Positions 10,827 through 59,734 of a stretch of DNA of 64,000 nucleotides are shown here, piece after piece; positions within the stretch are counted from its first letter, which is position 1; the number at the start of each line of letters is the position of its first letter. The notes under the pieces were generated by a model. That model had not been told where the DNA came from. It ran no database searches and worked only from the letters and a program-made list of their open reading frames with translations. The stretch covers positions 1 to 64,000 of IMG/VR virus record IMGVR_UViG_3300029288_000153, one strand, 5' to 3'. This stretch comes from a virus. Lineage: Duplodnaviria; Caudoviricetes. The position numbers and the translations under genes are program-made.

Positions 10827-10911
10827 CGCATGTACGTCTCACTCGACTGGACCGTGAGCAGGTCATTATACCCCCATCATCCCCTATCATATGATAACAC
10901 GCCCCCAAAAG

Positions 10912-10929
10912 CTCACTGTCTCACTCGAC
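10912..10929 (+). repeat. 18-bp direct repeat CTCACTGTCTCACTCGAC, copy 1
   Basis: Identical to 11513-11530; partial third copy at 10836-10852. Confidence 0.8.
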
Positions 10930-10943
10930 TGGACTGCTAGTGG

Positions 10944-11459
10944 TCACCGGAGTTCGTCGATAAGTATGTAGACCCGACCAAGAATCGTCTCGAACTCGTC
11001 GTTGTCGGGCAACGAGGTGGCATGGTGCAATAACTCGTGAGCAAAGGCGGTCTCGGCGCCACGCGTGGGAGCAAAATCCGTGTAGTCCTGCAAGTCCTCT
11101 GACCATTCATGTTGCCAACCGGCCGACACCTCTATCCATGGATGGTCCTATCCGCTGTGATGATAGCACCCATAAGCCCTAGTGCCGCCGCAATCAAGTA
11201 CGCCGTACGACCATAGGACCACCACCGGGGTGGGGAGGGGGTAGCCGACGACCTGCTCGACGACCTGCTGGATAGCTGCTATGTCGGCGTCGAAATCCTC
11301 GGTCCCAACCCATTCGGGGGCCCCAGAGTCAATCCAAGTACCGACTTGAGGGGTAGACTGGTAGTCGGCCGTGGGGGCTGCATCCGGCTCTCGACCACAC
11401 CCAGCAACCAACACGAAGGCGACGAGGATTAGATTGGAGATATTTTTATAGGCGATCAT
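10944..11459 (-). pseudogene. Lipoprotein with zincin HELLH motif, interrupted by one in-frame TAG at 11148-11150
   Basis: Lipobox LVAG-C; ORFs 11148..11459 and 10944..11129 share a frame (…CYHHSG*DHPWIEVSAGW…AFAHELLH). Confidence 0.7.
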
Positions 11460-11465
11460 GACAGT

Positions 11466-11494
11466 AGTATATCACCATCTCCTTGTGTGGTCAA
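11466..11494 (-). promoter_or_regulatory. sigma70 promoter TTGACC-N17-TATACT
   Basis: Near-consensus -35/-10, 17-nt spacer, TG extension, directly upstream of the lipoprotein start. Confidence 0.75.
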
Positions 11495-11508
11495 GGTCTT
11501 AGTCTTTG

Positions 11509-11784
11509 CTATCTCACTGTCTCACTCGACGGCCTATCTACGATGCGCCCCAACAGGCAGCGCATTTCTTGCAGGATCTCCTGGGCTCTCGCGCCCGATA
11601 TCCCCACGTGCTGCTTAAGTACGTAATATTTTTCGTACGATCGCTCGTACAACTCCAACCACCCCAATACTCGATACGCAAAATCTCGCTCGATCACGGT
11701 CGGCAAGGTGTGGACGTACTCGGCCGCCCGCCTGAGGCATACCAGATGATGGGCCGCGGTCATATTTTGAGCAGCGAGGGTCAT
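11509..11784 (-). CDS. Hypothetical protein
   Basis: 91-aa ORF, ATGA overlap with upstream gene. Confidence 0.6.
   Translation of the reverse strand: MTLAAQNMTAAHHLVCLRRAAEYVHTLPTVIERDFAYRVLGWLELYERSYEKYYVLKQHVGISGARAQEILQEMRCLLGRIVDRPSSETVR
11513..11530 (+). repeat. 18-bp direct repeat CTCACTGTCTCACTCGAC, copy 2
   Basis: Identical to 10912-10929. Confidence 0.8.
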
Positions 11785-12083
11785 CTGCGGGGCTCCCGTA
11801 CCTTAGATATAGCTTTGGCGTTTTTTATGCAGGTGTTTATTTTATTGGTCGCCGCCGTCGTACAAGATCTGATACACGCTCGCCCCACTTCGTTTTTCCT
11901 CGCTGGGGCCGCCGAGCTGCTAATTAGATCCCGATAGGCATCAGCGCATTCGGATATGCACGTCTCGTTGTCTCCCACCGCCCTGTCGACACATCGTTGG
12001 GCGTAGTCGACCGCCGCGGAGGCGTAGATCGCCGACGGAATCAAATAGGCTATTAAGAGGAAGAGGATAAGGAATCGGCTCAT
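11781..12083 (-). CDS. Small secreted cysteine-rich protein
   Basis: Probable start MSRFLILFLLIAYLIPSAIYASA (signal peptide) followed by six Cys including two CxxxC pairs. Confidence 0.6.
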   Translation of the reverse strand: MSRFLILFLLIAYLIPSAIYASAAVDYAQRCVDRAVGDNETCISECADAYRDLISSSAAPARKNEVGRACIRSCTTAATNKINTCIKNAKAISKVREPRR

Positions 12084-12223
12084 GAGGTAGGTGATGGTAT
12101 ATTTGGTCGTCGTGTGAATCGTCACCGCTTCGATGGTGGGGCAGTGTCTCGATGTATCTCTTCCTGCAGAAAACCAGAACATAACACTACTGTAACACAA
12201 ACACCTGACTTCGTCAACAGGTA

Positions 12224-13027
12224 TTACGTGCTGATTAGTTTTTGGGTGGCCTCGGAGTGCTTTACTACCACGCCGACCGGCCGGCCAGTAAGCGCAAAAT
12301 GCGCGTCTTTGCCGGGCTTCAGTGTCGCGGTGAGCTTGACGGTGGCACCGCGCAGGGCGTCTAATCTACCATTGGGGCCGCACGGCATCGAGTCGAGCAG
12401 GGCCGCCGGAACGGTGCCCCAGGCTAGCCAGATGCCGTCGCCGCATGGCACCTTAACCGTCATCTTGTAGGCGGTTCCGTATGGGGTGTCATAGGCCTTA
12501 GCCGACACCACCACCCCCAAAAAAGTTTGTCGGCCAGTACCGACAGGAGCCACCACCAGTTTCTCGGGGGGTCGCCTTGACTCCTCCGCTAACCTGAGTA
12601 CTAGCGCGATCTGGCGATTTGTGATCTTGCGATACTTAGCAAATCGCACCGCGATGTCGCGGACGATAGGGTGATCGACACATAGGGCGTCTTGTAGCCC
12701 CGGGTTTTGGTCTAGTATACTCTGGCGCTCGACTTCAAGGCGCTCTTCGCGCTCAGCGCTGAGCGCCGCCTTCTTGGTTGCCATCTCATCGTTTTTGTGC
12801 CTACGACGAATCGCTTTAATCTCCGACTTGAGTCCAAAATCTCCGGTCTTATAGACACAGTCGCATCCTACCTTAAACTGTCTATGATCAGTAGAGAGGA
12901 TCAAGTAGATATTCTTAATGCTCGTACCGCAATAATCACAAGATGTCCTCCCCTTATCGAACCCGACCACACGAAAAGGGGCTTCACCGAGGCCGGCTTG
13001 CGAAAAGGGATGGGGGCGGTCGATCAT
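12224..13027 (-). CDS. Hypothetical Zn-finger protein with C-terminal OB-like region
   Basis: CDYCG...VGCDCV; own promoter upstream. Confidence 0.7.
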   Translation of the reverse strand: MIDRPHPFSQAGLGEAPFRVVGFDKGRTSCDYCGTSIKNIYLILSTDHRQFKVGCDCVYKTGDFGLKSEIKAIRRRHKNDEMATKKAALSAEREERLEVERQSILDQNPGLQDALCVDHPIVRDIAVRFAKYRKITNRQIALVLRLAEESRRPPEKLVVAPVGTGRQTFLGVVVSAKAYDTPYGTAYKMTVKVPCGDGIWLAWGTVPAALLDSMPCGPNGRLDALRGATVKLTATLKPGKDAHFALTGRPVGVVVKHSEATQKLIST

Positions 13028-13033
13028 GAGATT

Positions 13034-13062
13034 AATATACGCTACCCATACGAGAATGTCAA
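13034..13062 (-). promoter_or_regulatory. sigma70 promoter TTGACA-N17-TATATT
   Basis: Perfect -35, 17-nt spacer. Confidence 0.75.
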
Positions 13063-13130
13063 GAGGCGTGTTGGCCGCTATTTTGGGGGTGATTTACTGT
13101 CTCGTTTAGGTGGAATGTGAACAGGGATTA

Positions 13131-13481
13131 TTAACCGCCAGTAACAAACGGACGCAGGGCGGTCCAGATGGCGTCTAGCTCATCATTCGACGCCTTACCC
13201 AACTTGACTCGATCTATTGCGTCGTCTATACGCACGACACGCCAGACTCGATTAATTTTGGTTTGACGTAGTATTTTATCCACGACCTCAACAGTGAACG
13301 GACATATCGTCATCGACCTGTCTAGTGTATATTTACTGAGCCTGATCTTGCCGGTTGGCGTGATTTTTGTAACGACGTCGCGACTGTACCAAGCATCTCC
13401 TGTCCGTGTCGTATTCGATATCGCCACTGCATCCCCGACCTTCAAGTTCTTTAGCCACTCACATCGCTCTGTATCAGTCAT
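13131..13481 (-). CDS. Hypothetical protein
   Basis: 116-aa ORF with SH3-like start (LKVGDAVAI). Confidence 0.65.
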   Translation of the reverse strand: MTDTERCEWLKNLKVGDAVAISNTTRTGDAWYSRDVVTKITPTGKIRLSKYTLDRSMTICPFTVEVVDKILRQTKINRVWRVVRIDDAIDRVKLGKASNDELDAIWTALRPFVTGG

Positions 13482-13547
13482 GACTATGATATATCACACC
13501 TCGGTATAGAAGTCAACCAGACCATAGGGCGAGTCACAACACTCCAC

Positions 13548-13781
13548 CTACCCAGAAACACAGTCCTCCGATATCATACCCCGAATCTTTCCGACCACTG
13601 TCCGGTACTGCGACTCAACCCAGTCGGATGTTTCGCCTAGCCCTTTGGCGATCATGACGGTGGGGAGTCCGTCGGGGAATTTTTGGATCGCCTCATCGAC
13701 ACTATAATGATAACGCCGAAGGAATACGTAGTCGGTTTCTTGGCGGATCATTTGTCGCTGTTCTTCTGTTATGGTGGCCAT
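13548..13781 (-). CDS. Small hypothetical, possibly HTH
   Basis: 77 aa, RBS GAGGGGG; IAKGLGETSDWVES...KIR pattern. Confidence 0.6.
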   Translation of the reverse strand: MATITEEQRQMIRQETDYVFLRRYHYSVDEAIQKFPDGLPTVMIAKGLGETSDWVESQYRTVVGKIRGMISEDCVSG

Positions 13782-13800
13782 ATTGCCCCCTCAGTCGCTA

Positions 13801-14220
13801 TTATACAACGTTACTTGTAGGACGCTGTGTCCAGCGTTCCAAGGGCACATCGATGATTTCGCCTAATCCTAGTGATTTTGGGCATATATCTTGCAAGTGC
13901 TTTTCGGCAATGGCGAAATGTTCTCGTCTCGCCCGAACTTCGATGGTGGTGGTATTATATAGTTGCCTCGCTGATGTGATTTGTGCACGGTAGCTCCTAC
14001 GTCTCTCCGCTGCCGCCGCGTACTCGGGCAGAGATACCACACATCCCTCGTCACAACACCGCACCATCTGCCTCTGCTGTGCGGTTTGCTGATCGACTAG
14101 GTGGACCAAGGCATCGATCTGATTTTTGGCTTTCGCCGCCCGCCCTTCTACTTCGACTAGCGCGGCCGAGAGGGTGTCAACTGTTTTTTTAATCTTAGCA
14201 ATATGGTCGATTTCAATCAT
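13801..14220 (-). CDS. Hypothetical coiled-coil protein
   Basis: 139-aa ORF with promoter TGA-TATACT at 14227-14235. Confidence 0.6.
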   Translation of the reverse strand: MIEIDHIAKIKKTVDTLSAALVEVEGRAAKAKNQIDALVHLVDQQTAQQRQMVRCCDEGCVVSLPEYAAAAERRRSYRAQITSARQLYNTTTIEVRARREHFAIAEKHLQDICPKSLGLGEIIDVPLERWTQRPTSNVV

Positions 14221-14270
14221 GATCGTAGTATATCATGCCTTAATAGCCTCAGTTAACCGAACCGTCATAT

Positions 14271-16972: not shown

Positions 16973-17066
16973 GATTAGCCCCTTTCTACTACGCCTCACT
17001 GTCATGAACAGATTATTATGTCATATCAGTATGATAACACGACGAAGTGTCAGTGTGCATATATAT

Positions 17067-22740: not shown

Positions 22741-24576
22741 CTACCAGTGCTCGTTAGCTGTCTCGATAGATGCGTTGCGATCCCAACCTGCAGCCTCGCG
22801 AGCCTCGCAACGCTCTAACTCGGCATCTCGGGGAAACACCACCACCCCACCCAGCGTCCCCAGTAAGGTAGCGATAGAGATACTGTTACGTAGCGCCTCT
22901 AGCACAGCTGGGGTAGCATCGAGGACGCCTGAATGAAATGCGTCGACTGTCTTCCCGTTAGCTGCATCGTATATTTGGGTGCCTACGCCGATTTTTGGTT
23001 GTATGGCGGCTATCTCGTCGGCGTTGAGGCCGACGTTGTTAAGTAGCCTAATCCACGGCTCGTGTAGAGCAGGGACCAGTACCTCATTTACAATGGATAG
23101 TACATCGGGCTTTTTGCTGTATTGTTTGACTAATAGATGTGTCAGTTTTAGTAACGTCCAGCAACCACCAGGCAACACTCCGCTTTTTAGCGAGCCCTGA
23201 ACTGACCGCACCGCATCGTCACAGCGATCTCGACGCTCCCGAATATCGCCAGTCGACGATCCGACCACAAACAGCTTGGCGATCCCCCCTACTAAACTGG
23301 CTCTGCGCTCTTCAATTAGCCTGCGATCGAGTTCACTAATAGCATTCTTGGACATACCCGCCAGGACCTCGGCTCGTTCAATGACTTCGTCGGGGTCATT
23401 GACACCGACCAAGGTGGATCGAAAACGCAATGCCTCGAATTCCTTTGCTCTTCCCACCCATGGCAGGTGGTAGACATCTCCTTGGTCGTCTACTTCTATA
23501 GGCCGGGCCGTATCGAACGGCGCCGAGACCGGATCAAAAATTTGAGCGCCAGTTACCGCAGACAAATCGTCCAAAAACATAACCTCGCCGTTCATCAACG
23601 CACACCGAGGGGTAATCACGGGGTACACCTTTAGCGACCCTTTTGTCCAATTCAGCATCAGCGAGCCTAATACGGCATCGCTAAACCCATGGGCGACCAG
23701 CACCACCCCAGGGGCTCGTAGCTTCGGCATGTCGGCGATAGCGGGAGATACCCCGGTACCGTTATTGAGGGCATCCTGCAGGATATTAAGCAGCGGCATT
23801 GCTGTGGCGATATCGGTAATCGATCCATTGTATAATACGACACAAGGTTCTTCCAAAAAGACTCGATTATTGCTCTTGTCGTTCATGAACGCGCTCGACC
23901 ATCGCGCCACCGAATCTTCGATCCCCGTAGGAATAGGAAATCCATCTAGTTTTTCGACCTCATACCCAGATGGCCCGCTTTTATCTGATAGACAAATGTT
24001 GCCGTTGTCTCCGATCAGATCAAAACACGACATCACGGCGTCGGCTAATCGTTCTTCGCCGTTCGCCGAGATCAGCGCGACAGAACGGCAGAGTCTACGT
24101 CCTTCTGAGGTAGATATATCCACCTTGGTGGCCCATTCTTTGATTGCTGGCTCGATCGTATCCTCAAAGATCTTTTGAATTGTCTGAACGATTCGTTGTG
24201 GCGGGATCTCTGGGTGACGTGTATGAAACTCTTGAGCGCCGCGCAGTAGCGCATAAGACAAAACCGTCGCGGTAGATGTACCGTCCCCCGCTTCACTGAC
24301 AGTACGCACAGCAGCATCCCTTGCCGACTCCATAATCGAATGAGCAACAGGGTTTTGAAACCCTAAATGCTGAAACACGGTTACGCCATCTTTGGTTAGA
24401 ATTGGAGGCAGTGAGAACTCCTGTCGCTCAATCATCACAGGGGATCCACCGGGGCCCAATGTAGCACCTACGATATCAGAGATCGTCTTCATCGTATTTA
24501 GGATGAGTTTATCTAGATCCGGAGAGCGAACCTTCACCAACTTCGCTGCGGCTTGCACTTTTAAATGTGCTGTCAT
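22741..24576 (-). CDS. groL: Chaperonin GroEL
   Basis: TLGPGG, TKDGVTV, AGDGTSTATV, DDA, GVLPGGC, GVLD. Confidence 0.95.
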   Translation of the reverse strand: MTAHLKVQAAAKLVKVRSPDLDKLILNTMKTISDIVGATLGPGGSPVMIERQEFSLPPILTKDGVTVFQHLGFQNPVAHSIMESARDAAVRTVSEAGDGTSTATVLSYALLRGAQEFHTRHPEIPPQRIVQTIQKIFEDTIEPAIKEWATKVDISTSEGRRLCRSVALISANGEERLADAVMSCFDLIGDNGNICLSDKSGPSGYEVEKLDGFPIPTGIEDSVARWSSAFMNDKSNNRVFLEEPCVVLYNGSITDIATAMPLLNILQDALNNGTGVSPAIADMPKLRAPGVVLVAHGFSDAVLGSLMLNWTKGSLKVYPVITPRCALMNGEVMFLDDLSAVTGAQIFDPVSAPFDTARPIEVDDQGDVYHLPWVGRAKEFEALRFRSTLVGVNDPDEVIERAEVLAGMSKNAISELDRRLIEERRASLVGGIAKLFVVGSSTGDIRERRDRCDDAVRSVQGSLKSGVLPGGCWTLLKLTHLLVKQYSKKPDVLSIVNEVLVPALHEPWIRLLNNVGLNADEIAAIQPKIGVGTQIYDAANGKTVDAFHSGVLDATPAVLEALRNSISIATLLGTLGGVVVFPRDAELERCEAREAAGWDRNASIETANEHW

Positions 24577-24618
24577 ATGTTACCTTTCGTCTAGCTCGAC
24601 TGGAACGGTCCCTTACAG

Positions 24619-25284
24619 TCAAAATGAAAACACTACTCTCCCTGATAAAATATCATTTACCGGCCCTTCTCCTCGTCGAGCACGAGCCAAGGAGGCTTTG
24701 ACGTATCTTTTACGTAACCGATCTAGTTCCTCTTGTTCCGGGGACACTACCCGAGGTTTACGTATATCGTCAAGTAGCTTTTGGGCGATCTGACGGGCTC
24801 GTTCAACCATCATAGCTGTTTCTATTTCTGTTTTTGTTTCGGCGGCAGAAGAAGACACGTTGATACCACAGGCCGTGTAGTCTGCTGCCCCAAAACCTAG
24901 AACATCACGCCTAGGAGGTATTTTTATAGCGGTATCTAATCGTTTAGGAGTTTTTGACATCTGCGAGGTAGAGGAGGTGTCGTGATACGAGGATTGCTTG
25001 TAGTTTTTGATTTCATGTCGTGTAAGTCCAAACACGGGGACACGATCGTTTGGACGTATCAGTCGTTTCGAGAACCACCCACCTTCTTGTCGGAAAGCGA
25101 AGGTTGTTTTATTTATCTTGTGGAATTTATTAAGTATTTTAATGTATCGTCGCACTGTCCTAGGCGATACATCTAATTCTTGCGCCAGAAACTTGTCTCC
25201 AGCGTTACACCACCCTCTACGAGCGAGGCTAGATATCAGTATCATACAGCGATTCAGTTGAGTGGAGAGTCTGTTGGATCTCAT
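24619..25284 (-). CDS. Winged-helix protein, phage replication-initiator-like
   Basis: GWCNAGDKFLAQELDVSPRTVRRYIKIL; adjacent to 84-bp repeats. Confidence 0.65.
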   Translation of the reverse strand: MRSNRLSTQLNRCMILISSLARRGWCNAGDKFLAQELDVSPRTVRRYIKILNKFHKINKTTFAFRQEGGWFSKRLIRPNDRVPVFGLTRHEIKNYKQSSYHDTSSTSQMSKTPKRLDTAIKIPPRRDVLGFGAADYTACGINVSSSAAETKTEIETAMMVERARQIAQKLLDDIRKPRVVSPEQEELDRLRKRYVKASLARARRGEGPVNDILSGRVVFSF

Positions 25285-25350
25285 TTTGATAAGTAGTTGC
25301 TGACGATACTATAACACGGCGTCGAATGAATCACCACAACATCGTAGAAG

Positions 25351-25434
25351 TCCACTGTCCTCTAGATCTGTATTTTAATATATCACGTAGATCTCTATAT
25401 GATCACAGATCTAGCGGCCAAAAACAAGATGGCT
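25351..25434 (+). repeat. 84-bp perfect direct repeat, copy 1 (candidate origin/iteron)
   Basis: Identical to 25482-25565; three AGATCT palindromes and a leftward CGTGA-TATATT promoter per unit. Confidence 0.9.
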
Positions 25435-25481
25435 GTACCTAAAGAAGGAGGTTATTGGGAGATTTAAATAGCAGTATTTAC

Positions 25482-25565
25482 TCCACTGTCCTCTAGATCT
25501 GTATTTTAATATATCACGTAGATCTCTATATGATCACAGATCTAGCGGCCAAAAACAAGATGGCT
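25482..25565 (+). repeat. 84-bp perfect direct repeat, copy 2
   Basis: Identical to 25351-25434; 47-bp spacer between copies. Confidence 0.9.
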
Positions 25566-25620
25566 ATCGATATAGAGGCATGTTATAGTTACGTTAAGGG
25601 ATATGAACACTGCTCACTAG

Positions 25621-26214
25621 GTGGTGTACGAGAAATCTATGTTAATCACATTTATTGGAGTCCCGTGTTCAGGAAAAACCTCGGTGGCATCTCGATTATT
25701 CGCTGACCTCAAGGATCACGGGTTGTCGGTGGAGTTACTAACCGAACAGGCACGCATGTATATTGCGAAAAAAAAATACCGTGAAAAGAACGGGTTTACT
25801 GGGTTGGATACCAATGATCAATTTACTATTATGCGGGAACAGGCTATCAATGAATTAGCTCTAGCAGCTAATTCGTCTTCGATCGTAATAGCAGACTCAT
25901 GTGCCCTGTCGGCACTTTTCTACGTTCCTAAATCAGAAATAACTCAGACTGCTATCTGTTTAGCTAGACGGATGGCTCCTAGGTATAGTCTAATATTCCG
26001 CTGTGCGGCTGTTGTGCCGGGAATTAACTATGATCCCTTGCGAATACATAGCTACGAAGAGTCAATCGCCCTGGAGCCTAGAATTGACGATGTGTTGGCT
26101 CTAGCGCGAGTAAACGACGATCGGATCGTGCGATTATATGGCGATAACAACACTCGCGCCCTAGATGCCGGTCGTATAACTACTGCTTTGATATATGAGG
26201 AGTTCAGGCGTTGA
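25621..26214 (+). CDS. P-loop nucleoside/nucleotide kinase (NadR/AAA_28-like)
   Basis: FIGVPCSGKTS, LTEQAR, IADSC. Confidence 0.75.
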   Translation: MVYEKSMLITFIGVPCSGKTSVASRLFADLKDHGLSVELLTEQARMYIAKKKYREKNGFTGLDTNDQFTIMREQAINELALAANSSSIVIADSCALSALFYVPKSEITQTAICLARRMAPRYSLIFRCAAVVPGINYDPLRIHSYEESIALEPRIDDVLALARVNDDRIVRLYGDNNTRALDAGRITTALIYEEFRR

Positions 26215-27752
26215 AATTGATTATTACGTCATCAACCCCCGCTGAGTTGACCGTGACGGAGGCCACGGAGTCTGATTTGTCTACCTTAAGATCCTTGTTG
26301 ACTTTTCGTGATCGTCAGGTTGAATTTCTGGTCTCGAAACATAAACGGAACAGAAGGTGGAGGGATTCTGCAACCGAAACCTGGAAGAGTAAGTTAGATG
26401 ATTTGACAGGTCAGATCACTCGATGTTTGTTGCTCTCCGATGATTCAGGCAGATGGTATACCTACGTTGGTCTGGCCTCGTATATTCAACAAGCCATGCC
26501 GGGGACAGTAGTAGAAAATCAAGTACAATACCCGGTCCCCGCACCTGTCGCTTGGGAGCATGTACCTAAGTATTCTCCTCGCTATTATCAGTCAGAGGCC
26601 AAAGCGGCGCTTTGGGTCACCAGACACGGCGCAATCAGTATGCCAACAGGATCTGGTAAGTCGTATATAATTAGTGAGCTGTGTCGTGATTTAGGAGTGA
26701 GGGCTGTAATCATGGCCCCTACTACCAGTATTGCTCGACAGTTATATTGCGACTTTTTGTCGCTGTTTGGTAAGAAAAATGTTGGTCTGTATGGCGACGG
26801 AAAAAAAGAAATTGGCAAGAGATTTACTATCGGCATAGCGGCAAGTTTAACTAGAGTTGAGATTGGGTCGGAGGCGTGGAATTTTTTCTCGAACAGCGAT
26901 TTGGTTATCTGCGATGAATCTCACCTACTACCAGCCACCACCTTTGAGCACGTATGTATGGGGCTATTACGCACCGCCCCTTATCGTTTTTTTGTTTCGG
27001 CCACTCAAATGCGCACGGATGGTGCCGAGCTATTGTTAAGGGGTATAGTTGGTGATATCGTTTACCGGAAAGAATTCCAAGAGCTAGTGGACGAGGAATT
27101 CTTAGCTAAGCCTCATTTTGTTATGGCGCGGATCCCCTCAACTCACCCTTATCACGGAGACGATGCATTAAAGATGTCGCAGCATCACCTATTGTACAAT
27201 AAGCGTATAATTGAACATGCGGGGCGTCTAATTAACGGGATGGCCAAGCAAGGCAAGAGGGTGCTGGTGTTGATAGATGAAATTGCTCAATTTGCTGCAC
27301 TGCTACCTCAGTTGCGTGTACAGGTAGGGTTTGCACATGGAGGTTGCACGGCCGTAAATCGAGATTCGGTACCCGGGGAATATCGTAAATCCGATCCTCA
27401 GGCTTTGGTGCGAGCGTTCGACGCCGGTGAATTGCCTGTGCTCGTTGGGACTAGCTGTATTGGCATTGGTACGGATATCCGCTCTCCCGAGGTTGTGGTG
27501 TTTTTGCAAGGAGGAATGAGCGAAATACAGGTCACGCAGGCGCTGGGCAGAGGCACTCGGCGGGGGTATGTATATCCCGACGGTCATACCAAGTCGGATT
27601 TTTTATTTGTGGACTATGCCCCCGTGGTTCAGAATGGACACTATCAGGATGGTGTCGGTAAGATGTCCTCGGTATATCGACACGCATTGGCGCGATCGAA
27701 GATTTACGAGCAGATATATCCCAATTCGCTGAAGTGGGTGCAATATGACTAA
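26211..27752 (+). CDS. uvsW: SF2 DNA helicase, UvsW-like
   Basis: RYYQ, PTGSGKS, CDESH, SAT, QALGRGTR. Confidence 0.85.
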   Translation: MKLIITSSTPAELTVTEATESDLSTLRSLLTFRDRQVEFLVSKHKRNRRWRDSATETWKSKLDDLTGQITRCLLLSDDSGRWYTYVGLASYIQQAMPGTVVENQVQYPVPAPVAWEHVPKYSPRYYQSEAKAALWVTRHGAISMPTGSGKSYIISELCRDLGVRAVIMAPTTSIARQLYCDFLSLFGKKNVGLYGDGKKEIGKRFTIGIAASLTRVEIGSEAWNFFSNSDLVICDESHLLPATTFEHVCMGLLRTAPYRFFVSATQMRTDGAELLLRGIVGDIVYRKEFQELVDEEFLAKPHFVMARIPSTHPYHGDDALKMSQHHLLYNKRIIEHAGRLINGMAKQGKRVLVLIDEIAQFAALLPQLRVQVGFAHGGCTAVNRDSVPGEYRKSDPQALVRAFDAGELPVLVGTSCIGIGTDIRSPEVVVFLQGGMSEIQVTQALGRGTRRGYVYPDGHTKSDFLFVDYAPVVQNGHYQDGVGKMSSVYRHALARSKIYEQIYPNSLKWVQYD

Positions 27753-28803
27753 AAAACAGTATAGTAGCGAGCATTTTTTGTCGTTTGTGTCAAGTTTAGG
27801 TGGGTTGTTAGATGGAGAGAAAAACACAGAGGAGTTTCAGAAAAAACAAGTAGAAACCTTATTTAAGGCGGAGAGGAGTTTTCGGCGTGCGTTGATTTGT
27901 CATCCTTCGGGCGCCGAGGTGTATCAAGCGTTTATTGATCATATTATGATACGCCAGCGTAATATATTACGAGCCCGGGTGTACTTTCGGGAGCGCGATG
28001 TCCGTTTCAAAAAAGATATTGCCCCTATTTTACGTGCCCGCAAGTTTCGGCGACTATTTCGTTTCGACATTAACTATCAGTTTATTAAGTTTGCTTTGGG
28101 GTGTCGTCAGTGGTCCGAAGATGCTCAGTCCCGGAAGCTTCTAAAGTTAGCCGATAAGGCCATAGCGGCTCGCAATTGTTTGATTCAGAGTAATATCCCG
28201 TTGGCGATCTCCCGGGCTCGGTTGTTTTTTAGTCGATCTCGGGGAGGACATCATACGTTTCTAGATCTACTTCAGACCGCGGTGGGGGGGATGTGTTCGG
28301 GGGTCGACAAATATTGCGGTAGCTACACGCCCGTGTTTCGGGCCGTATTGATCGGTCGCATGCTTGGCGACCTATTAGAAGCCAACAGCGATACTTTGGC
28401 TCATCTGTTCCCGGCCGATAAGCGTCGACTATATCGAGCGAGGAAGATTGCGGCCGGGCTGCGCGAGGGTCTAGACAACGTGGACTGCTTGGAGCTGACC
28501 AAGTTGTTGAATGACGAGGAACTAGCCAAGGGGGAGCCCCCAACCAGCGCAAATGATTTAGTTGCGCTAGTCAACGCGGCCACCGTGATCTTGGCCAGTA
28601 CTCTGCCGTCGGGGGAGGACGATGATGGTCATTCGACGAGTTTCATTGAGGCATATCCAGACAGTTCCGACCCGGCCGACGTTATGTTGGAAAAAGCAGA
28701 ATCTAGACATCGGGTTGCTGAGGCCATAAAAAAGCTGCCGTTGGTGGACCGTAAGTTGTTGCGCTTGAAAGGGATCGATCTGGCGGCTATCGCGTCGTCG
28801 TGA
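27745..28803 (+). CDS. sigma70-family RNA polymerase sigma factor (lacks region 4.2)
   Basis: Region 2: NIPLAISRA...FLDLLQTAVGGMCSGVDKY; ends just after region 4.1-like EAIKKLPLVDRKLLRLKG. Confidence 0.8.
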   Translation: MTKKQYSSEHFLSFVSSLGGLLDGEKNTEEFQKKQVETLFKAERSFRRALICHPSGAEVYQAFIDHIMIRQRNILRARVYFRERDVRFKKDIAPILRARKFRRLFRFDINYQFIKFALGCRQWSEDAQSRKLLKLADKAIAARNCLIQSNIPLAISRARLFFSRSRGGHHTFLDLLQTAVGGMCSGVDKYCGSYTPVFRAVLIGRMLGDLLEANSDTLAHLFPADKRRLYRARKIAAGLREGLDNVDCLELTKLLNDEELAKGEPPTSANDLVALVNAATVILASTLPSGEDDDGHSTSFIEAYPDSSDPADVMLEKAESRHRVAEAIKKLPLVDRKLLRLKGIDLAAIASS

Positions 28804-28849: not shown

Positions 28850-29179
28850 ATGGTATTTCGGACAGTCAATAAAGATATAGCATGTAGCCCGTTTCCTACT
28901 CACGCTATTGAACCTGCGATCAGTAAGAGCGGATTCATCACCGCGGCCCCTAGGGCCACAATGTGTGCCTTGACCGTACGAGCCGAGTACATGCCACTGG
29001 ACTTGCAGCGAGGTGATGTTGTTTTTGTCCCCTTGGAGTTCGCGAATTCGGTTTGGGGCAAGAGGCGTATTTCTGTCTTGGGGCTCGACGAGTTCATATT
29101 GGTTCCCGCCGAACAGATCTGTGTGATTCAGAAACACGAACAGGCCCGTCCGCTTCCCACTAGGGAGGCGAGTGAATAG
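28850..29179 (+). CDS. groS: Divergent GroES/Cpn10-like co-chaperonin
   Basis: FRTVNKDIAC ~ IRPLHDRV; KSGFI ~ AGGIV; DLQRGDVVFV ~ DVKVGDIVIF; DEFILVPAEQICVI ~ EEVLIMSESDILAI. Confidence 0.65.
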   Translation: MVFRTVNKDIACSPFPTHAIEPAISKSGFITAAPRATMCALTVRAEYMPLDLQRGDVVFVPLEFANSVWGKRRISVLGLDEFILVPAEQICVIQKHEQARPLPTREASE

Positions 29180-30164
29180 ATATTTGATTGTAGGTGATGT
29201 ACACGCCAAGGTCGACGATCTTGACGATTGTCGACATCTACAGGAGCTGATCCGGACAGTGGAGTCCACGGAAAATCCCGATGCCACTATATTTCTAGGC
29301 GATCAGTTCGACGCCTTCGCCTTAAAAAATGTGATAGTAGAGCGCTGGTGGATGGATATGTTGGAGGATGGTCGTAAGAGGTACCTGTTGATGGGCAACC
29401 ATGATCGCCCCGGCGACTCTGCGGCTGTAGGTAATGCCCTACAGGCTCACCGGGATCGAGCTGTCGTGGTCGATGTTCCGGTCGTGGTCGGAGACGTAGC
29501 TTTGTTGCCTTTTTATTTTTGTGCTGCTGATTTTGTGGCGGCGTGTTGTACGCCTGACGTGTTGCGAGCCAAAACGATATTCGCTCATCAGAGCTTTTTG
29601 GGGGGGCGATTTGAGTCTGGGATTCCCATCGATCAGCGCACTGATCCGTCGGCTGTCGAGCCCGGGGCTGTGCCACAGCAGTGTGTGATTAGTGGGCATA
29701 TTCATGCTCCTCAGAGTGTTGGCAAAGTGTGGTATCCTGGGGCTCCTCGGTGGCGAAATAACGTCTCCGACGCTAATTGTGAGCGCTACATCTACTTGGT
29801 TTCGTTTGATGTGGGGGTGCCTAAGGGGATAAAAAAATTCTCGACCGGTGAGGTGTGTCGGCGGATGTGGCGTGTGGAGGATACTGAGGGCGTATGTGAG
29901 GTGTCGGATCTGCCCGGTCGACCAACTGATCGATTTGTGGTGGATATTACCGGCACGGCAGCGTATATTGAGCGACAAAAGAAAAAATGGTCGTCGCCAG
30001 GGGTCAGAATCAGGGCTTTTCAAACAGATCGACCCGGACCAAAATTGTCTGAGTCTCAAGGTGTAGAGGCGGCGTGGAATAAGTGGATGTCGGAGTACTC
30101 CCCAAAGCACGGATCGTCGCTAGAGGCGCTCCGTCGATTAGCAATAGAAAGGTTGTCGCCGTGA
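29172..30164 (+). CDS. sbcD: SbcD/Mre11/gp47-like nuclease
   Basis: GDVH, GDQFD, GNHD, AHQ, SGHIH, YPGAP. Confidence 0.88.
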   Translation: MNRYLIVGDVHAKVDDLDDCRHLQELIRTVESTENPDATIFLGDQFDAFALKNVIVERWWMDMLEDGRKRYLLMGNHDRPGDSAAVGNALQAHRDRAVVVDVPVVVGDVALLPFYFCAADFVAACCTPDVLRAKTIFAHQSFLGGRFESGIPIDQRTDPSAVEPGAVPQQCVISGHIHAPQSVGKVWYPGAPRWRNNVSDANCERYIYLVSFDVGVPKGIKKFSTGEVCRRMWRVEDTEGVCEVSDLPGRPTDRFVVDITGTAAYIERQKKKWSSPGVRIRAFQTDRPGPKLSESQGVEAAWNKWMSEYSPKHGSSLEALRRLAIERLSP

Positions 30165-30652: not shown

Positions 30653-30801
30653 CACGATCTGTTATCAGGTGGCTATGTACTATGGTGTTTAGTGTTGGTG
30701 GTTGGTGTGAGCGAGATTCGTGGCTAGGAAGATGGTGCGATAAAACGTGGGTCTCTTTAGCTTCGAGATATTTTCGTAATCTAAATAAATCAAGGAGGTA
30801 G
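30649..30801 (+). CDS. Small Trp-rich hypothetical protein (50 aa)
   Basis: Hand-found; ATGA overlap with upstream stop; MTRSVIRWLC...RNLNKSRR. Confidence 0.4.
   Translation: MTRSVIRWLCTMVFSVGGWCERDSWLGRWCDKTWVSLASRYFRNLNKSRR
30777..30783 (+). promoter_or_regulatory. Candidate late promoter TAATCTA
   Basis: Recurs upstream of structural genes. Confidence 0.55.
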
Positions 30802-30804
30802 TAT

Positions 30805-31080
30805 ATGGAATACGTCGATCAATCGAACGTATCGGAGTATTGTAAGTGTATAAGGAGTACTGGAATAGATAGGCGGATTCAGCGTGTAGATCTCCGCGAT
30901 TCCGATGAGGGGGCGTGGGCGTTTTTTTTGCCGACCTTATATGTCATCAAGAGGAATACGTGGGAGTGTTTCCGGTATCGGTTGGTTTTGTGTGTAGGAT
31001 TCTGGGAGATTCGCGTCGGGGTCGGTCGAATCGACCACGACGCCCCCGGTGACTCGTCAGAAGCCGACGAAAGATGGTAA
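30805..31080 (+). CDS. Hypothetical protein
   Basis: Strong RBS AAGGAGG. Confidence 0.65.
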   Translation: MEYVDQSNVSEYCKCIRSTGIDRRIQRVDLRDSDEGAWAFFLPTLYVIKRNTWECFRYRLVLCVGFWEIRVGVGRIDHDAPGDSSEADERW

Positions 31081-31715
31081 AAGAGGTGTCGATGCGTAAC
31101 GACTTGCCCACGGTCCAGTCGACTGAGACGGCGGTTGGTAGGATAGGTAGGGCGCTAGATCGTCTCAGTGTAGATGAGCGGTCGATTTACGATCGATTTG
31201 TTCATATTGGTGGTCGAGAGCTATCTGCTGACGCTGCGGCTAGGCTATATGGGCTGTATTTGCAGGGGGTGTCGTGTGAGGATATCAGCAGATTGAATCC
31301 GGCTGTCGATTTGGCCACCGTGTTGGCCGCGAGAGTGCGATACAACTGGGACGAACGTAAGGATGTATATGTCGGCGATTTGATGGCTTACACGGGCGAC
31401 GCAGTGCGTCAGACCGCTGCCGAGACCGTGCAATTGTTGGGGCTGATGGTCGCGGCAGCCAGCAAAAAACACGGGGACGCGCTGAAACGTTATCTGGCTA
31501 CCGGCGATGAGTCAGTATTGGGGGAGTTTGATATTAAGACCATCAGGCAATTTCGAGATGTAGTCGAGATGATGGTGCGGATCACGGGGGGGGACAGCAA
31601 GAGGCAAGTGGTTATTGCTAGATCGATCCAGCCCGAGGCTCCTGTGTTGTCTGTGCAAGGTCGCCGGCTAAGTCCAGGGGAGGCTGACTCAATTCGAAGC
31701 GCCAATATGAAGTAG
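31074..31715 (+). CDS. Terminase small subunit (by position and HTH)
   Basis: LYGLYLQGVSCEDIS HTH; RARYNW; immediately upstream of TerL. Confidence 0.6.
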   Translation: MVKEVSMRNDLPTVQSTETAVGRIGRALDRLSVDERSIYDRFVHIGGRELSADAAARLYGLYLQGVSCEDISRLNPAVDLATVLAARVRYNWDERKDVYVGDLMAYTGDAVRQTAAETVQLLGLMVAAASKKHGDALKRYLATGDESVLGEFDIKTIRQFRDVVEMMVRITGGDSKRQVVIARSIQPEAPVLSVQGRRLSPGEADSIRSANMK

Positions 31716-33631: not shown

Positions 33632-33674
33632 TCTAGTTGAGAGAGACCGGTCCGGTTGAATGAGGTGTTGGCCG

Positions 33675-33681
33675 TAATCTA
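33675..33681 (+). promoter_or_regulatory. Candidate late promoter TAATCTA
   Basis: Intergenic, upstream of ORF starting 33736. Confidence 0.55.
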
Positions 33682-33735
33682 TTGCCTATACTGATTGGCC
33701 CGCGACAGGTCAGTAAGAGAAAGAACGAAGAGATT

Positions 33736-34704
33736 ATGCTCCTAGCTAACGTAGTAGAAAAAGTTTTGTTTTATGAGGATGTCGAAAACTCCACCAATCC
33801 GCAACGTAAGGTTGTGGACTGGTCACGTAGTGCCACAGGGCTACCTTTCGAGGAGGTTCGATCAGAACGGTTTTTGTTACAAGTGGGAGGTACCAAGACT
33901 TTAGAGCCGGACGTAGGGGTCGTTGATTTGTCGGCCACTCCGGTGGATATTGCGCCAGCGCCAGGTAAGCAGACATGGGTTCAGATCAGAGGGGCGTTCG
34001 CAACAAATCCCTGGGCGAGTGCTTTGGCGGTTGCTGGTCAGCTATTGACCGCCACTCTACAGCCTGATGGTTCCTTGTTGTTGACGGGGGCGGGGTTGGG
34101 TGCGTTGACCTCTGTCAGGCCCGGCGATCGACTGTATCTATCTGGCGCCGACTATGGAGATGCCGGTGCGTTTTCGACGGCCAACCAGGGGATCTGGGGG
34201 GTGGTGTCGATCGGTGTCGGGGTAACCTTGCGACGGGTCTATGCTGAGGATGTGACAGGTGTTACGGAGACCGTCACGACCGTTGGTACAGGAGACATCC
34301 AACACCTGCCCGAGTCTCTGCGGCCTCAATGGGCTTTTATTCGCGGCCTATATGGGTATGCTGGCGTGAAGCTGATTACGGCGGCTGTATCTGGTTGGGT
34401 GGCTATTGCCGACGAAGCGCAGTTTGCTGATGCGGTTGGGGTGACGTTGGATTGTTTAGTGGTGGTACCTAGGTATATAGCGTATGTGCGAGTGGAAACC
34501 GATAAGCCGGTTACTGTAGTGGTTGGTGACGTCGGGGTATCTGCTAATGAGATCAGCTTGCTGCCGGTGTCGTCTGGGGCACCTGGATGGTATGAGGGGT
34601 TTGCGTTTGGGACTAGCCTGGCGATCACCAATGCGGGCGGATACGATAGTGCTACAATTAATTGTATCTATGCTTTTTCTAGTAGCGGCTTGTCCACGGT
34701 CTAG
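33736..34704 (+). CDS. Putative virion protein, beta-rich
   Basis: Probable start MLLANV; between TerL and portal. Confidence 0.65.
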   Translation: MLLANVVEKVLFYEDVENSTNPQRKVVDWSRSATGLPFEEVRSERFLLQVGGTKTLEPDVGVVDLSATPVDIAPAPGKQTWVQIRGAFATNPWASALAVAGQLLTATLQPDGSLLLTGAGLGALTSVRPGDRLYLSGADYGDAGAFSTANQGIWGVVSIGVGVTLRRVYAEDVTGVTETVTTVGTGDIQHLPESLRPQWAFIRGLYGYAGVKLITAAVSGWVAIADEAQFADAVGVTLDCLVVVPRYIAYVRVETDKPVTVVVGDVGVSANEISLLPVSSGAPGWYEGFAFGTSLAITNAGGYDSATINCIYAFSSSGLSTV

Positions 34705-36764: not shown

Positions 36765-37570
36765 TGACCCCTCGGCTTAGTCGTGGAGCTATCAAGGTTA
36801 TTGAAGCTAAGATCGACGGAATGTATGATCGGCTACTCAATAGGCTACTAGGTACCTGTTCTCCGCATAAATCTCTGTTTATGTCGGTGGATCCATTCTT
36901 TTCTGTGCCAGGTCTCTATGCTCAGGCGGTGTCGGAGGAGGGTGGTGCGGTGGATCGTGATTTGGTGCAGGGGCTATCGGATGTGGTGTCTCATATTACC
37001 GACAAGCAGCGCTCCGAAAGTAAGGCGATCACTATTCGTAAGATCCAAGCCATCTTGGAGGATGTTAAGGCCGGTAGGATAGAGCCCCAAAACTTCAAGA
37101 ATCATTTAGAAAGTGAGCTGATCGATACTTGGGGGAGAGTGTCGAGCAACGTCGAGCGCATTGTGGATACTGAAACCCAGCACGCCATGACCATTGGGCT
37201 ACGTGAAGGGATAAGTCAAATAAATGCCGTACGGGGCATCGTTGATCCAGTATTGGTTTTCGTGGTAAAGAACGATCAGGCTTTGTGTGATGAATGCCGG
37301 CGTGTCCATTTATTGGACGACGGACATACGCCTAGGGCGTGGTACCAATCTGAGGTGTCGGCGGATTATCATCATCGAGGTGACAACGTTCCGTCGTTCC
37401 ATCTCATGCACCCACATTGTCGATGTGTTATGGGTACTATTTTACCAGGATTTGGTCTAGATGGTAATGGCCGCATCACCTTTATTGCAGATGGATTCTC
37501 GGAGCTAGATTTCCAGCGCACAACGGGCGGTGGTGGCGGGGTGGAGGCGCGTCGCCGGTGGAGGGGGTAA
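36764..37570 (+). CDS. Head morphogenesis protein (MuF/SPP1 gp7-like)
   Basis: ERIVDTE...D..LCDECRR...HPHCRC after portal. Confidence 0.8.
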   Translation: MTPRLSRGAIKVIEAKIDGMYDRLLNRLLGTCSPHKSLFMSVDPFFSVPGLYAQAVSEEGGAVDRDLVQGLSDVVSHITDKQRSESKAITIRKIQAILEDVKAGRIEPQNFKNHLESELIDTWGRVSSNVERIVDTETQHAMTIGLREGISQINAVRGIVDPVLVFVVKNDQALCDECRRVHLLDDGHTPRAWYQSEVSADYHHRGDNVPSFHLMHPHCRCVMGTILPGFGLDGNGRITFIADGFSELDFQRTTGGGGGVEARRRWRG

Positions 37571-37574
37571 TCTA
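37568..37574 (+). promoter_or_regulatory. Candidate late promoter TAATCTA (second TAATCT at 37595-37600)
   Basis: Upstream of ORF 37623. Confidence 0.55.
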
Positions 37575-37622
37575 AGTAGAGTGGTTGTGGCGTCTAATCT
37601 GTAAGCCAGCGGAGAAAACTAT

Positions 37623-38306
37623 ATGATGAACCTGAAGAGGGTGTCGCAGATTAGCCGGGCGTTGACGGCCGATGGTGCTAGTGGATTTGTGCGCGTGGCG
37701 ACGCCAAATCCTTTTGTGGTGGGCATGACCGTAAATCTGACATCGGCTGGCCCTGCTGTATTAGGTTTACAGATTTCAGATATCAAAGGGGTGGGAGGCA
37801 GTACCGACGTGGCCGTGTACCTTATTGATCCAGCCACTCAGGCGGCCTACGACGCTTCGGCGTACACCACCCTACTGACATCTCTGATCATTGCTCCTGC
37901 TCAGACCCTTTGGTACGAGGTCGGGGTAGATGGCGTGGTTCCCACACCGTTTACTGATCTACAGATGCGGTCTATTATGGACGCCATCTTGCCGGCGTCA
38001 TTGTCGGGTGGGGTAACCGACGCTCAGCTACAAGTTACCCTAAACAAGTACGTGTATCCGGTATTAGGGGCAAATCTCTATCTGGCTATCTCTACTGTCG
38101 ACGCTTCTGTGTCGGTGGGGGCAGGATCGTACTTGATGATGAGCACCGTTGATGTGTCTTTTGCGGATGGCGTCGAGCCGACCTTGGGGCAGTCTAAATT
38201 GTTGGCGGCTAAAATTTACGTGCCCTGTAGATGGGCGTCGACCACCACGGTACACTTCAAGACATCGGCGGGCACCGGAACGGTATTTCTCTGGCCCTGT
38301 ACCTAA
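37623..38306 (+). CDS. Putative virion protein, paralog of 41069..41833
   Basis: Shared N-domain ...DASAYTT...QTLWY. Confidence 0.65.
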   Translation: MMNLKRVSQISRALTADGASGFVRVATPNPFVVGMTVNLTSAGPAVLGLQISDIKGVGGSTDVAVYLIDPATQAAYDASAYTTLLTSLIIAPAQTLWYEVGVDGVVPTPFTDLQMRSIMDAILPASLSGGVTDAQLQVTLNKYVYPVLGANLYLAISTVDASVSVGAGSYLMMSTVDVSFADGVEPTLGQSKLLAAKIYVPCRWASTTTVHFKTSAGTGTVFLWPCT

Positions 38307-42430: not shown

Positions 42431-42473
42431 CGAGATGCAATCTACGATGTAGCTACCCGTACCTCAACGGAGT

Positions 42474-43953: not shown

Positions 43954-44020
43954 TTTGTGGTATGTGTTCTAGCGGCAATCTAACTACAGGCGTGTCGCGT
44001 TGGTATCTGCGAGGTCATCG

Positions 44021-48971: not shown

Positions 48972-49250
48972 ATGTTGGAAATGAACATAAAAATCTACGA
49001 CAACGGTAGGGTTTGTCGGTTTTTTGGCACAGAGCGCGAAATGGAGACCAAATTACGTCATATGTTCCCGACTGAAACCCAAAATGTTCGGGGATTAATT
49101 GGCTGTGTGGATGCGATTACTCAAGGTGGGTTCGCTGAGGTCGAGGTAGAGAATTGGCACGAACCCCCCGAGCGGAACGTGTTGCCTGAGGACTATCTTA
49201 CATCTGACTCGGGAGATGATCCTTGGGTCCGGGAAGGGGACCGAGAGTAA
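48972..49250 (+). CDS. Hypothetical protein
   Basis: RBS AAGGAG. Confidence 0.65.
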   Translation: MLEMNIKIYDNGRVCRFFGTEREMETKLRHMFPTETQNVRGLIGCVDAITQGGFAEVEVENWHEPPERNVLPEDYLTSDSGDDPWVREGDRE

Positions 49251-49289
49251 TCTGAGATGCGTTGTCCGATAGGCGAAAGTGCCGCGATG

Positions 49290-49296
49290 TAATCTA
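49290..49296 (+). promoter_or_regulatory. Candidate late promoter TAATCTA
   Basis: 6 nt upstream of ATG 49303, no SD between. Confidence 0.55.
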
Positions 49297-54850: not shown

Positions 54851-55243
54851 CTACATAAATCTAGGGTACGTCCAGACGAGCTTGTCGGCGCCTTGAGGTG
54901 TCATTGGCGCGTATTGGCTTAAGTTGCTGATCATGTATTGAACAGCCACCGGATTAGCGGAGTGTAGGATGAGTTTACGGGGCCACATCAATAACCCATC
55001 CCTCTCCTGCGCAGTGATTAGTCGCTTTATTATTTCCCGCCCCTCGTTTTCGAGCCCAGGTACTCCGAGGTCGTTGTCGAGCGAGCAGGTGTCGACGTTG
55101 TAAGTGCACAGTAGCTCCCAGCACTCATCTACCGTCTTAACGCTCCAGCATTCCTTCACCGTCTTAGGATCATAGAACCCTTTTGGGGGCGTACGTTCGT
55201 CGTCCAGGTAGACGGCTATGAGATGTGTCCTGTACGTAGTCAT
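54851..55243 (-). CDS. Cyclic-phosphate-processing receiver (cREC-like) domain protein
   Basis: YLDDERTPP, SLDNDLG, LHSANPV. Confidence 0.75.
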   Translation of the reverse strand: MTTYRTHLIAVYLDDERTPPKGFYDPKTVKECWSVKTVDECWELLCTYNVDTCSLDNDLGVPGLENEGREIIKRLITAQERDGLLMWPRKLILHSANPVAVQYMISNLSQYAPMTPQGADKLVWTYPRFM

Positions 55244-55899
55244 GGTTGGCTAAAGGCGAGAGCCCTGGTGGTTTTTGTGATTATCACCTTTTCTATGTTT
55301 TGTACAGTGGATCTACTTACCCCGTATTTCGTAGATAGGATCCCAAGATCGGTCGGATTATAAGACAGCAGACGACCGTACACTACCTCTCGACACAGGT
55401 TGGCGTCATATCTACTACGATGCCCCTTAGTCAATCGATCTATCACTCCGCATAAGGTACGGCGCAAGTGGGCGGCTCGATCCTGTTTGATTGCCGCATC
55501 TTCGGGGGTGTCTTCGGGGGACGTCGTAGACTCAAAATAGGATCTAGCTCCGTCGCTGCTCGTGTCGTCTATCGATACGTCGGCCTGGGCTTTTGTTCGT
55601 ACATTGCGTACCACGCAGGAGGAGCCGGCGCATCGGTATCGCTGGATGTAGGTGCGTACCCACTGAGCCGCGTAAAAGCGGAACTGCAGCCCTTTGGCGG
55701 GATTAAAGTTTGGAATAACATCCCTAATGATCGTCATTCTGCCCACTTGAGCCAGATCCTCTCGTTCACTGGATGGGCACTTGGTTTTGGCTACTATGGC
55801 GGCGATATCTCGCTCGCAGTACTTGATCAGCGCTTCGACGGCTCGTTTGTTGCCTGCCTTGGCTGCGCAGGCGAGGCGGTTTTGGTCGTTGGGGGTCAT
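55240..55899 (-). CDS. sigma70-family sigma factor (regions 2 and 4)
   Basis: GNKRAVEALI, EDLAQVG, FNPAKGLQFRFYAAQWVR, YGVSRSTVQNIE. Confidence 0.85.
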   Translation of the reverse strand: MTPNDQNRLACAAKAGNKRAVEALIKYCERDIAAIVAKTKCPSSEREDLAQVGRMTIIRDVIPNFNPAKGLQFRFYAAQWVRTYIQRYRCAGSSCVVRNVRTKAQADVSIDDTSSDGARSYFESTTSPEDTPEDAAIKQDRAAHLRRTLCGVIDRLTKGHRSRYDANLCREVVYGRLLSYNPTDLGILSTKYGVSRSTVQNIEKVIITKTTRALAFSQP

Positions 55900-57737: not shown

Positions 57738-57744
57738 TAATCTA
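57738..57744 (+). promoter_or_regulatory. Candidate late promoter TAATCTA
   Basis: 7 nt upstream of ATG 57752. Confidence 0.55.
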
Positions 57745-58554: not shown

Positions 58555-58561
58555 TAATCTA
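58555..58561 (+). promoter_or_regulatory. Candidate late promoter TAATCTA
   Basis: Immediately upstream of ORF 58565. Confidence 0.55.
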
Positions 58562-59727: not shown

Positions 59728-59734
59728 TAATCTA
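59728..59734 (+). promoter_or_regulatory. Candidate late promoter TAATCTA
   Basis: Intergenic, upstream of 59759. Confidence 0.55.

Follow-up and report, generated by a model that had tools for sequence, protein, structure and literature searches.

The 64,000 nucleotides of DNA analyzed here (hereafter the window) constitute the first 64 kilobases (kb) of the 74-kb IMG/VR phage record IMGVR_UViG_3300029288_000153 (Caudoviricetes; completeness estimate 45%), and encode at 27745-28803 on the plus strand a protein of the sigma-70 family which lacks the helix-turn-helix (HTH) of region 4.2, the part of a sigma factor that reads -35 elements. The absence of region 4.2 is a family-wide trait, and the predicted late promoters of the window and its relatives consist of a single box in the -10 region without a -35 element. 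Based on these observations we consider it reasonably probable that this phage sigma retargets the host core RNA polymerase to the virion genes via the single -10-type box. The only named relative of this uncultured phage is Myxococcus phage Mx1 (169.6 kb), whose sigma protein shows 40.6% identity to that of the window and was the sole match in a tblastn search with the latter against 50,697 phage records. The GenBank label of the Mx1 protein, entered as WNM70309.1, is merely 'putative RNA polymerase sigma factor', and the literature that we searched contained no description of the truncation of this sigma or of the box.

The open reading frame (ORF) 27745-28803 (352 amino acids; stop codon 28801-28803) encodes a sigma-70-family protein, which is most readily recognized through profile and structure comparisons. 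Pfam gave no match to the window sigma alone, a single-sequence PDB search was marginal (expect value E=0.04), and a PHROG scan (E<=0.01) recovered only the generic sigma factor family phrog_351 (E=3e-3); the NCBIfam sigma70 superfamily model matched with E=1e-5, under the model cut-off. A profile of 31 homologs aligned to RpoD/SigA chains over region 2 with E=3e-8, and Sigma70_r2 was found in 14 of the 31 family members (best E 8.4e-5), the window copy not being among them. The AlphaFold model of the window sigma (mean predicted local distance difference test score of 84) matched SigA/RpoD chains with a Foldseek probability of 1.0, and VIA-align gave Z scores of 12-13 (11.7-12.8 against sigma domain 2 structures), placing residues 5-336 of the model on 92-556 of E. 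coli sigma-70 and residues 7-282 on 76-314 of Thermus SigA. The modeled protein has an RpoD-like build, comprising region 1.2 with a helical N-terminal part (residues ~5-125), domain 2 (residues 126-215, nucleotides 28120-28389), domain 3 (residues 223-282, nucleotides 28411-28590), a disordered 3.2 linker (residues 288-307) and two 4.1 helices (residues 311-341, nucleotides 28675-28767). Outside region 2 the sequence support for this build is weak, with NCBIfam RpoD models scoring far under their cut-offs. An initial annotation of the window had described the factor as derived from RpoD; the RpoD-like build agrees with the Foldseek and VIA-align results, and descent from RpoD is a possible origin.

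The same annotation held that the protein keeps region 2 and stops right after a 4.1-like helix, and this is precisely what the alignment to E. coli RpoD (617 amino acids) reveals, as it spans positions 373-570 and terminates at 'LTAREAKVLRMRFGID', the end of region 4.1 ('...RFGID'). The NCBIfam alignments likewise end at profile positions 129 of 165 and 189 of 227, which is 36-38 positions short and leaves the HTH part unmatched, and Sigma70_r4 had no match in any of the 31 family members. The next conserved gene begins only 46 nucleotides after the stop codon, leaving no space for a frameshifted continuation. All 31 aligned homologs (336-381 amino acids) end 0-12 residues past 'KLLRLKGV', bar one with an acidic tail of ~20 residues; thus none reaches region 4.2, and the truncation is shared by the homologs, a point on which the initial annotation had called for comparison. 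An exhaustive HMMER search recovered 394 cluster representatives, and among the 150 of these that were listed nearly all are 335-380 amino acids long, with the match reaching their ends and tails past the match of at most ~19 residues, intein-bearing forms excepted. The truncated sigma is also encoded by 80 IMG/VR loci, on contigs of up to ~177 kb, and the Mx1 homolog has 335 amino acids with a stop codon that overlaps the next gene. As a separate observation, some family members of 570-824 amino acids (P0061, P0093 and about 15 other representatives) carry an intein near residues 212-231, where region 2.4 meets domain 3 (in P0093, Intein_splicing matched with 38.2 bits), a position that fits with its marking an important site in the sigma.

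In the window as a whole the hexamer TAATCT is not enriched (24 copies versus 27 expected). Nevertheless, 9 of its 14 sense-strand copies are intergenic, in DNA that makes up 8.3% of the window (binomial P=2.5e-7), and it is the top intergenic-enriched sense 6-mer; the next class, CGTGTTA/GTGATAT, corresponds to the extended -10 boxes of early promoters. Ahead of genes in the plus-strand virion blocks we found 11 YAATCT(A/G) sites preceded by G or C, the early TGnTAnnnT boxes being mainly in minus-strand replication blocks (Fisher P=0.003). The first of these late boxes, TAATCTA at 30777-30783, lies 21 nucleotides 5' of the ATG at 30805, which begins the first gene of the run into the large terminase gene. 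The second, TAATCTA at 33675-33681, lies directly 3' of the terminase stop codon (33631), and its position holds CAATCTA/T in Mx1 and many relatives. The longest ORF of the gene after terminase starts with TTG at 33682; the alignment with its Mx1 ortholog begins at Met19, the ATG at 33736, which is probably the true start and would place this late box in a leader of ~50 nucleotides. Two boxes, TAATCTA at 37568 and TAATCTG at 37595 (37568-37601), precede the gene at 37623, and CAATCTA boxes at 42438-42444 and 43976-43982 precede, respectively, the gene at 42474 and the gene at 44000 for a 963-residue head-protease fusion. Of the pair TAATCTG at 49248 and TAATCTA at 49290 (49248-49296), the second is 6 nucleotides 5' of the ATG at 49303, in leaderless geometry, and TAATCTA at 57738-57744 is 7 nucleotides 5' of the ATG at 57752. 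The remaining two, both TAATCTA, are at 58555-58561, ahead of the gene at 58565/58577, which more likely starts at the second of these ATGs, the one with a GGGAGA ribosome site, and at 59728-59734, ahead of the gene at 59759. Minus-strand copies of TAATCT at 13029-13034 and 17010-17015 were rejected as chance overlaps, as they lie inside sigma-70-type early promoters and have no preceding G or C.

The box recurs in the relatives. In Mx1 CAATCT(T/A) precedes the portal and tail sheath genes, the gene that follows terminase and no fewer than 8 further genes of the late block. In the 80 related loci, ranked with the window and Mx1 left out, the 6-mers AATCTT, CAATCT and TAATCT come just after TGATAT and GATATA and are intergenic-enriched 4.6- to 7.8-fold, with 1-4 box sites per 20-kb locus. 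An alignment of 92 non-identical sites, which are partly orthologous copies of the same intergenic regions and so not independent, contains information at the box only; G occurs one base 5' of the Y in 53/92 and a purine 13 nucleotides after it in 78/92, and positions -45 to -20 hold no notable information. Word counts upstream of these sites, made for a -35 element at variable spacing, yielded purine-rich words (AAGGG etc.) that were discarded as the conserved coding 3' end of terminase; it is this finding that identifies the sites as partly orthologous. Across the relatives the modal spacing from the W to the ATG is 6 nucleotides, identical to the spacing seen between early -10 hexamers and their ATG, which places the box as a -10 hexamer, with AATCTW at -12 to -7, Y at -13 and G at -14. 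Sigma-70 flips out two bases of its hexamer, A(-11) and T(-7); in this register the box keeps the former and mostly also the latter. Hence the initial claim that structural genes are preceded by TAATCT without a shared -35 element holds for a single conserved box in the window, Mx1 and the 80 loci, with the amendment that the box is better written G-Y-AATCT-W, its hexamer being AATCTW. Apart from this, many early genes at 11459-14235 (minus strand) and elsewhere in the window have a -10 hexamer exactly 6 nucleotides 5' of the ATG and no ribosome-binding site, and are thus leaderless; some of the late boxes, among them those at 49290 and 57738, share this geometry.

Upstream of the operon in which the sigma gene follows a kinase-like and a helicase gene lies an early-type extended -10 box, TGTTATAGT (25581-25589, plus strand), and the sigma gene is accordingly assigned to the early or middle genes. 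In the mechanism that we propose, the sigma would be expressed from this early host-type promoter and would use its conserved domain 2 to bind the core RNA polymerase of the host. The promoter would be G(-14) Y(-13) AATCTW(-12 to -7), the box being read by domain 2 with domain 3 possibly helping at -14/-13. No -35 contact would be made, because the protein lacks region 4.2. Transcription would start about 7 nucleotides past the box, and many late promoters would thus start at or just 5' of the ATG, giving leaderless mRNAs. The co-occurrence of the sigma and the box suggests that the former reads the latter. A search of Mx1 and 10 complete relatives for canonical sigmas found none besides the truncated one, and since these relatives carry the box, the truncated sigma is a consistent candidate for its reader.

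Several points weigh against this proposal. The co-occurrence is seen within one phage family, where every core gene co-occurs with the box, and the non-independence of the 92 sites lessens the weight of their alignment. The early extended -10 class likewise has little -35 information, so that the missing -35 signal is not peculiar to the late class. Finally, in a profile alignment read by eye, the tryptophan pair and other residues of sigma-70 region 2.3 are not conserved in the protein, which would have to melt and read a -10 element.

The reading in which the truncated sigma acts by itself could be refined, rather than opposed, by a two-piece system, which is possible though we entertain it only tentatively: the sigma would work only together with a free-standing mini-protein that either completes domain 4 in trans or takes the beta-flap in the manner of T4 gp33, as a module that does not read DNA. 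The candidate partner is an acidic protein of 77 amino acids (isoelectric point 5.0) with a putative sigma-region-4/LuxR-type HTH, encoded at 13548-13781 on the minus strand, ~14 kb from the sigma gene both in the window and in Mx1. Its profile has matches in Mx1 and in 10/10 complete relatives (E 1e-17 to 1e-39), found by profile search of whole genomes, a word-based search having returned only the protein itself and a related-loci search with 3 sequences a single locus. The Mx1 counterpart, of 76 amino acids, is encoded at 157482-157685 on the minus strand of that phage. As every relative tested encodes the mini-protein, the holoenzyme may not be without a domain-4-like module. The family has 471 members of 70-93 amino acids, always free-standing and uniformly acidic (isoelectric points 4.4-5.5), and its putative recognition helix starts acidic, which leads us to speculate that the mini-protein is more likely protein-binding, for instance to the beta-flap, than -35-reading; it may thus occupy the beta-flap site normally taken by region 4. 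The predicted likeness to sigma region 4 and LuxR HTHs is consistent across methods and never significant: PDB profile matches to NarL and sigma region 4.2 are weak (E 0.013-0.08), Sigma70_r4 matches homologous small ORFs of two relatives weakly (E about 0.01-0.06), Foldseek places extracytoplasmic function (ECF) sigma-4 and RcsB/NarL on top with a best E of 1.1, and Sigma70_r4 is found in 63-83% of the members of neighboring Atlas clusters, with Pfam and NCBIfam giving no match to the window's mini-protein. Also counting against the partnership, the mini-protein and sigma genes are not neighbors, and one relative has the former on the opposite side of the latter; the product may instead be a regulator of the ordinary early kind, or act as a decoy to block region 4 of the host sigma-70. 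The ORF immediately 3' of the sigma gene (28850-29179) was rejected as the missing 4.2 piece or as a gp33-like partner; it is conserved in Mx1 and GroES-like, and fits with a GroEL-like gene nearby.

An unlikely explanation is that the box is read by another factor, be it the host holoenzyme with a phage activator, a second sigma or another phage sigma-like factor, in which case the truncated sigma would serve middle genes or compete for core polymerase. The inferential nature of the link between sigma and box leaves room for it, as do the A(-11) and T(-7) that AATCTW shares with the sigma-70 hexamer and the presence in the window of a complete second sigma (55240-55899, minus strand; 219 amino acids, domains 2 and 4). 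The latter matches TIGR02937 with 45.2 bits, above the cut-off, and Sigma70_r2 with 27.7 bits, its nearest relatives being Bacillus-phage and SigF/G/K/RpoH-like sigmas. However, it has no counterpart in Mx1 and the 10 complete relatives, all of which bear the box; this eliminates it as the family-wide reader and implies that it is accessory and lineage-specific, probably a recent acquisition. Moreover, AATCTT matches TATAAT at 3/6 positions only, and a -35-blind sigma with a conserved class of promoters lacking the -35 element makes an economical pairing. The neighbors of the second sigma gene, in an islet on the minus strand, are genes for a DNA ligase, a cREC_REC receiver-like protein and a DUF7768 protein.

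It is highly improbable that the box, instead of being a promoter, is a signal acting at the RNA level, in processing or translation, or serves as a binding site on the DNA for a regulator or a packaging protein. Its location 0-90 nucleotides 5' of start codons is in a range typical of RNA leader elements too; yet the modal distance of 6 nucleotides to the ATG, as for early -10 hexamers, leaves no space for a leader and fits a start at the ATG, the box is strand-specific and intergenic with a purine at the predicted +1, and by eye no anti-Shine-Dalgarno complementarity is apparent. That the truncation is an artefact of frameshift, assembly error or gene decay, for which nothing speaks beyond the unusual end point, is already refuted, because hundreds of sequences of independent origin, the 31 homologs, the listed representatives and that of the cultured phage Mx1 among them, share the same end point, with the conserved downstream gene close behind the stop codon. 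We retain as the preferred reading a truncated sigma that directs the host polymerase to a -10-type late box.

The late system of phage T4 comprises the minimal sigma gp55, the acidic co-activator gp33 that binds the beta-flap, the clamp gp45 and a late promoter, TATAAATA, at -10. The system described here is reminiscent of it in having a phage-encoded sigma without the -35-reading part, late promoters made of a single box in the -10 region, possibly a small acidic partner in the place of domain 4 on the beta-flap, and a sigma gene near an SbcD/gp47-like nuclease gene. Concerning the last likeness, the initial annotation had placed the sigma gene beside the gp47-like gene; the latter (29172-30164) is in fact one gene away, with the GroES-like ORF between them, and its proximity is weak evidence for a gp55-type sigma. 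Unlike members of the gp55 family, to which it does not belong, the present sigma has no sequence relationship with gp55 (the PHROG scan giving phrog_351 only and tblastn Mx1 only), and whereas gp55 is essentially domain 2 only, it has 352 amino acids and, besides domain 2, a region 1.2, domain 3, a 3.2 linker and both 4.1 helices. The candidate partner differs from gp33 in being a putative sigma-4/LuxR-like HTH, and dependence on a sliding clamp is neither known nor suggested. The late switch thus probably resembles that of T4 while being differently built.

With region 1.2, domain 3 and region 4.1 retained and a frequent G at -14, the system also resembles sigma-70 without region 4.2 at extended -10 promoters. 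In work by Kumar et al. from 1993, E. coli sigma-70 cut before region 4.2 reportedly still initiates at such promoters (TGnTATAAT). The two share a nearly identical end point (RpoD 570 of 617) with domains 2 and 3 kept, need no -35 box and go with a frequent G at -14; in the phages, however, the truncation occurs naturally throughout a family, AATCTW takes the place of TATAAT as hexamer, and the region 2.3 tryptophan pair is replaced. A further comparison is with gp36 of phage phiEco32, an ECF-like sigma that still has domain 4, from which the present sigma differs by its lack of the 4.2 HTH and its RpoD-like build. It would be like gp36 and the sigma of phage 7-11, which have single-element middle and late promoters (PMC8948821, PMC12276001), in that a phage sigma steers the host core polymerase to one conserved element of the -10 region.

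Two other phage proteins, gp39 of Thermus phage P23-45 and AsiA of T4 (compare PMC3950348), abolish the recognition of -35 elements and leave only phage promoters of the extended -10 type active. The setting here is comparable in that the early TGnTAnnnT and the late AATCTW classes both look -35-independent, and a mimic of sigma-4 that occupies the flap would accordingly spare phage promoters and hit those of the host. This raises the possibility, in our estimate a rather doubtful one, of an Mx1-like two-piece late sigma, in which a factor truncated after 4.1 is joined on the beta-flap by an acidic, non-DNA-reading homolog of sigma-4 that also silences -35-dependent host promoters; the silencing part is suggested by the -35-independence of every phage promoter class. 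Homology was not found, and a role of the mini-protein in host shut-off is speculation.

Textbooks have long relied mainly on T4 gp55, a protein of obscure origin, to illustrate a sigma that disregards the -35 element. The phages that carry the present sigma, of ~165-177 kb, form a large and widely distributed group that has hardly been studied, and in them the factor is still recognizably RpoD-like and has lost only the -35-reading HTH. If the two-piece reading were true, it would represent an evolutionary intermediate between an ordinary sigma and the gp55/gp33 arrangement of T4. Since the tractable Myxococcus xanthus serves as a culture host for Mx1, the function of a sigma without region 4, what anchors it on the beta-flap and how gp55/gp33-like systems arise are directly testable questions. 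The box is also of practical use as a guide to late genes and leaderless starts when such phages are annotated. The window contributes the TAATCTA variant of the box and the accessory second sigma.

The gene order around the sigma gene is the same in the window and Mx1: kinase-like, helicase, sigma, small ORF, SbcD-like phosphoesterase, two small genes, large terminase and portal. The start of the sigma ORF overlaps the helicase stop codon, and the genes of the kinase-helicase-sigma operon overlap one another at 26211-26214 and 27745-27752. The small ORF 3' of the sigma gene (28850-29179, plus strand) resembles GroES-type co-chaperonins in its Atlas structure (template modeling score 0.55-0.60; no Pfam match), and a GroEL-like chaperonin gene lies 4 kb upstream at 22741-24576 on the minus strand (Cpn60_TCP1; phrog_5725, E=1e-78); together they may constitute a chaperonin pair of the phage's own. 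Between the kinase-helicase-sigma operon and the minus-strand gene for an HTH protein (HTH_11; 24619-25284) is a divergent control region (25285-25620) with two copies of a repeat of ~85 nucleotides, each containing a GTGATATA early box flanked by palindromes that include AGATCT. AGATCT-type words are enriched in the intergenic DNA of the window, and the repeats may be an operator for the HTH protein.

A further repeated element in the window is the 15-nucleotide word CCAGTCGAGTGAGAC, which at up to 3 mismatches has 7 matches versus 1.5 expected. Copies are at 10836-10850, 10918-10932, 11519-11533 and 24589-24603 (all minus strand) and at 31115-31129 and 33633-33647 (plus strand), mostly in leaders directly 5' of start codons, such as those of the N-terminal half of DnaE and of the GroEL-like gene, and a 26-nucleotide version of the word is found at 10836-10861 and 31104-31129.

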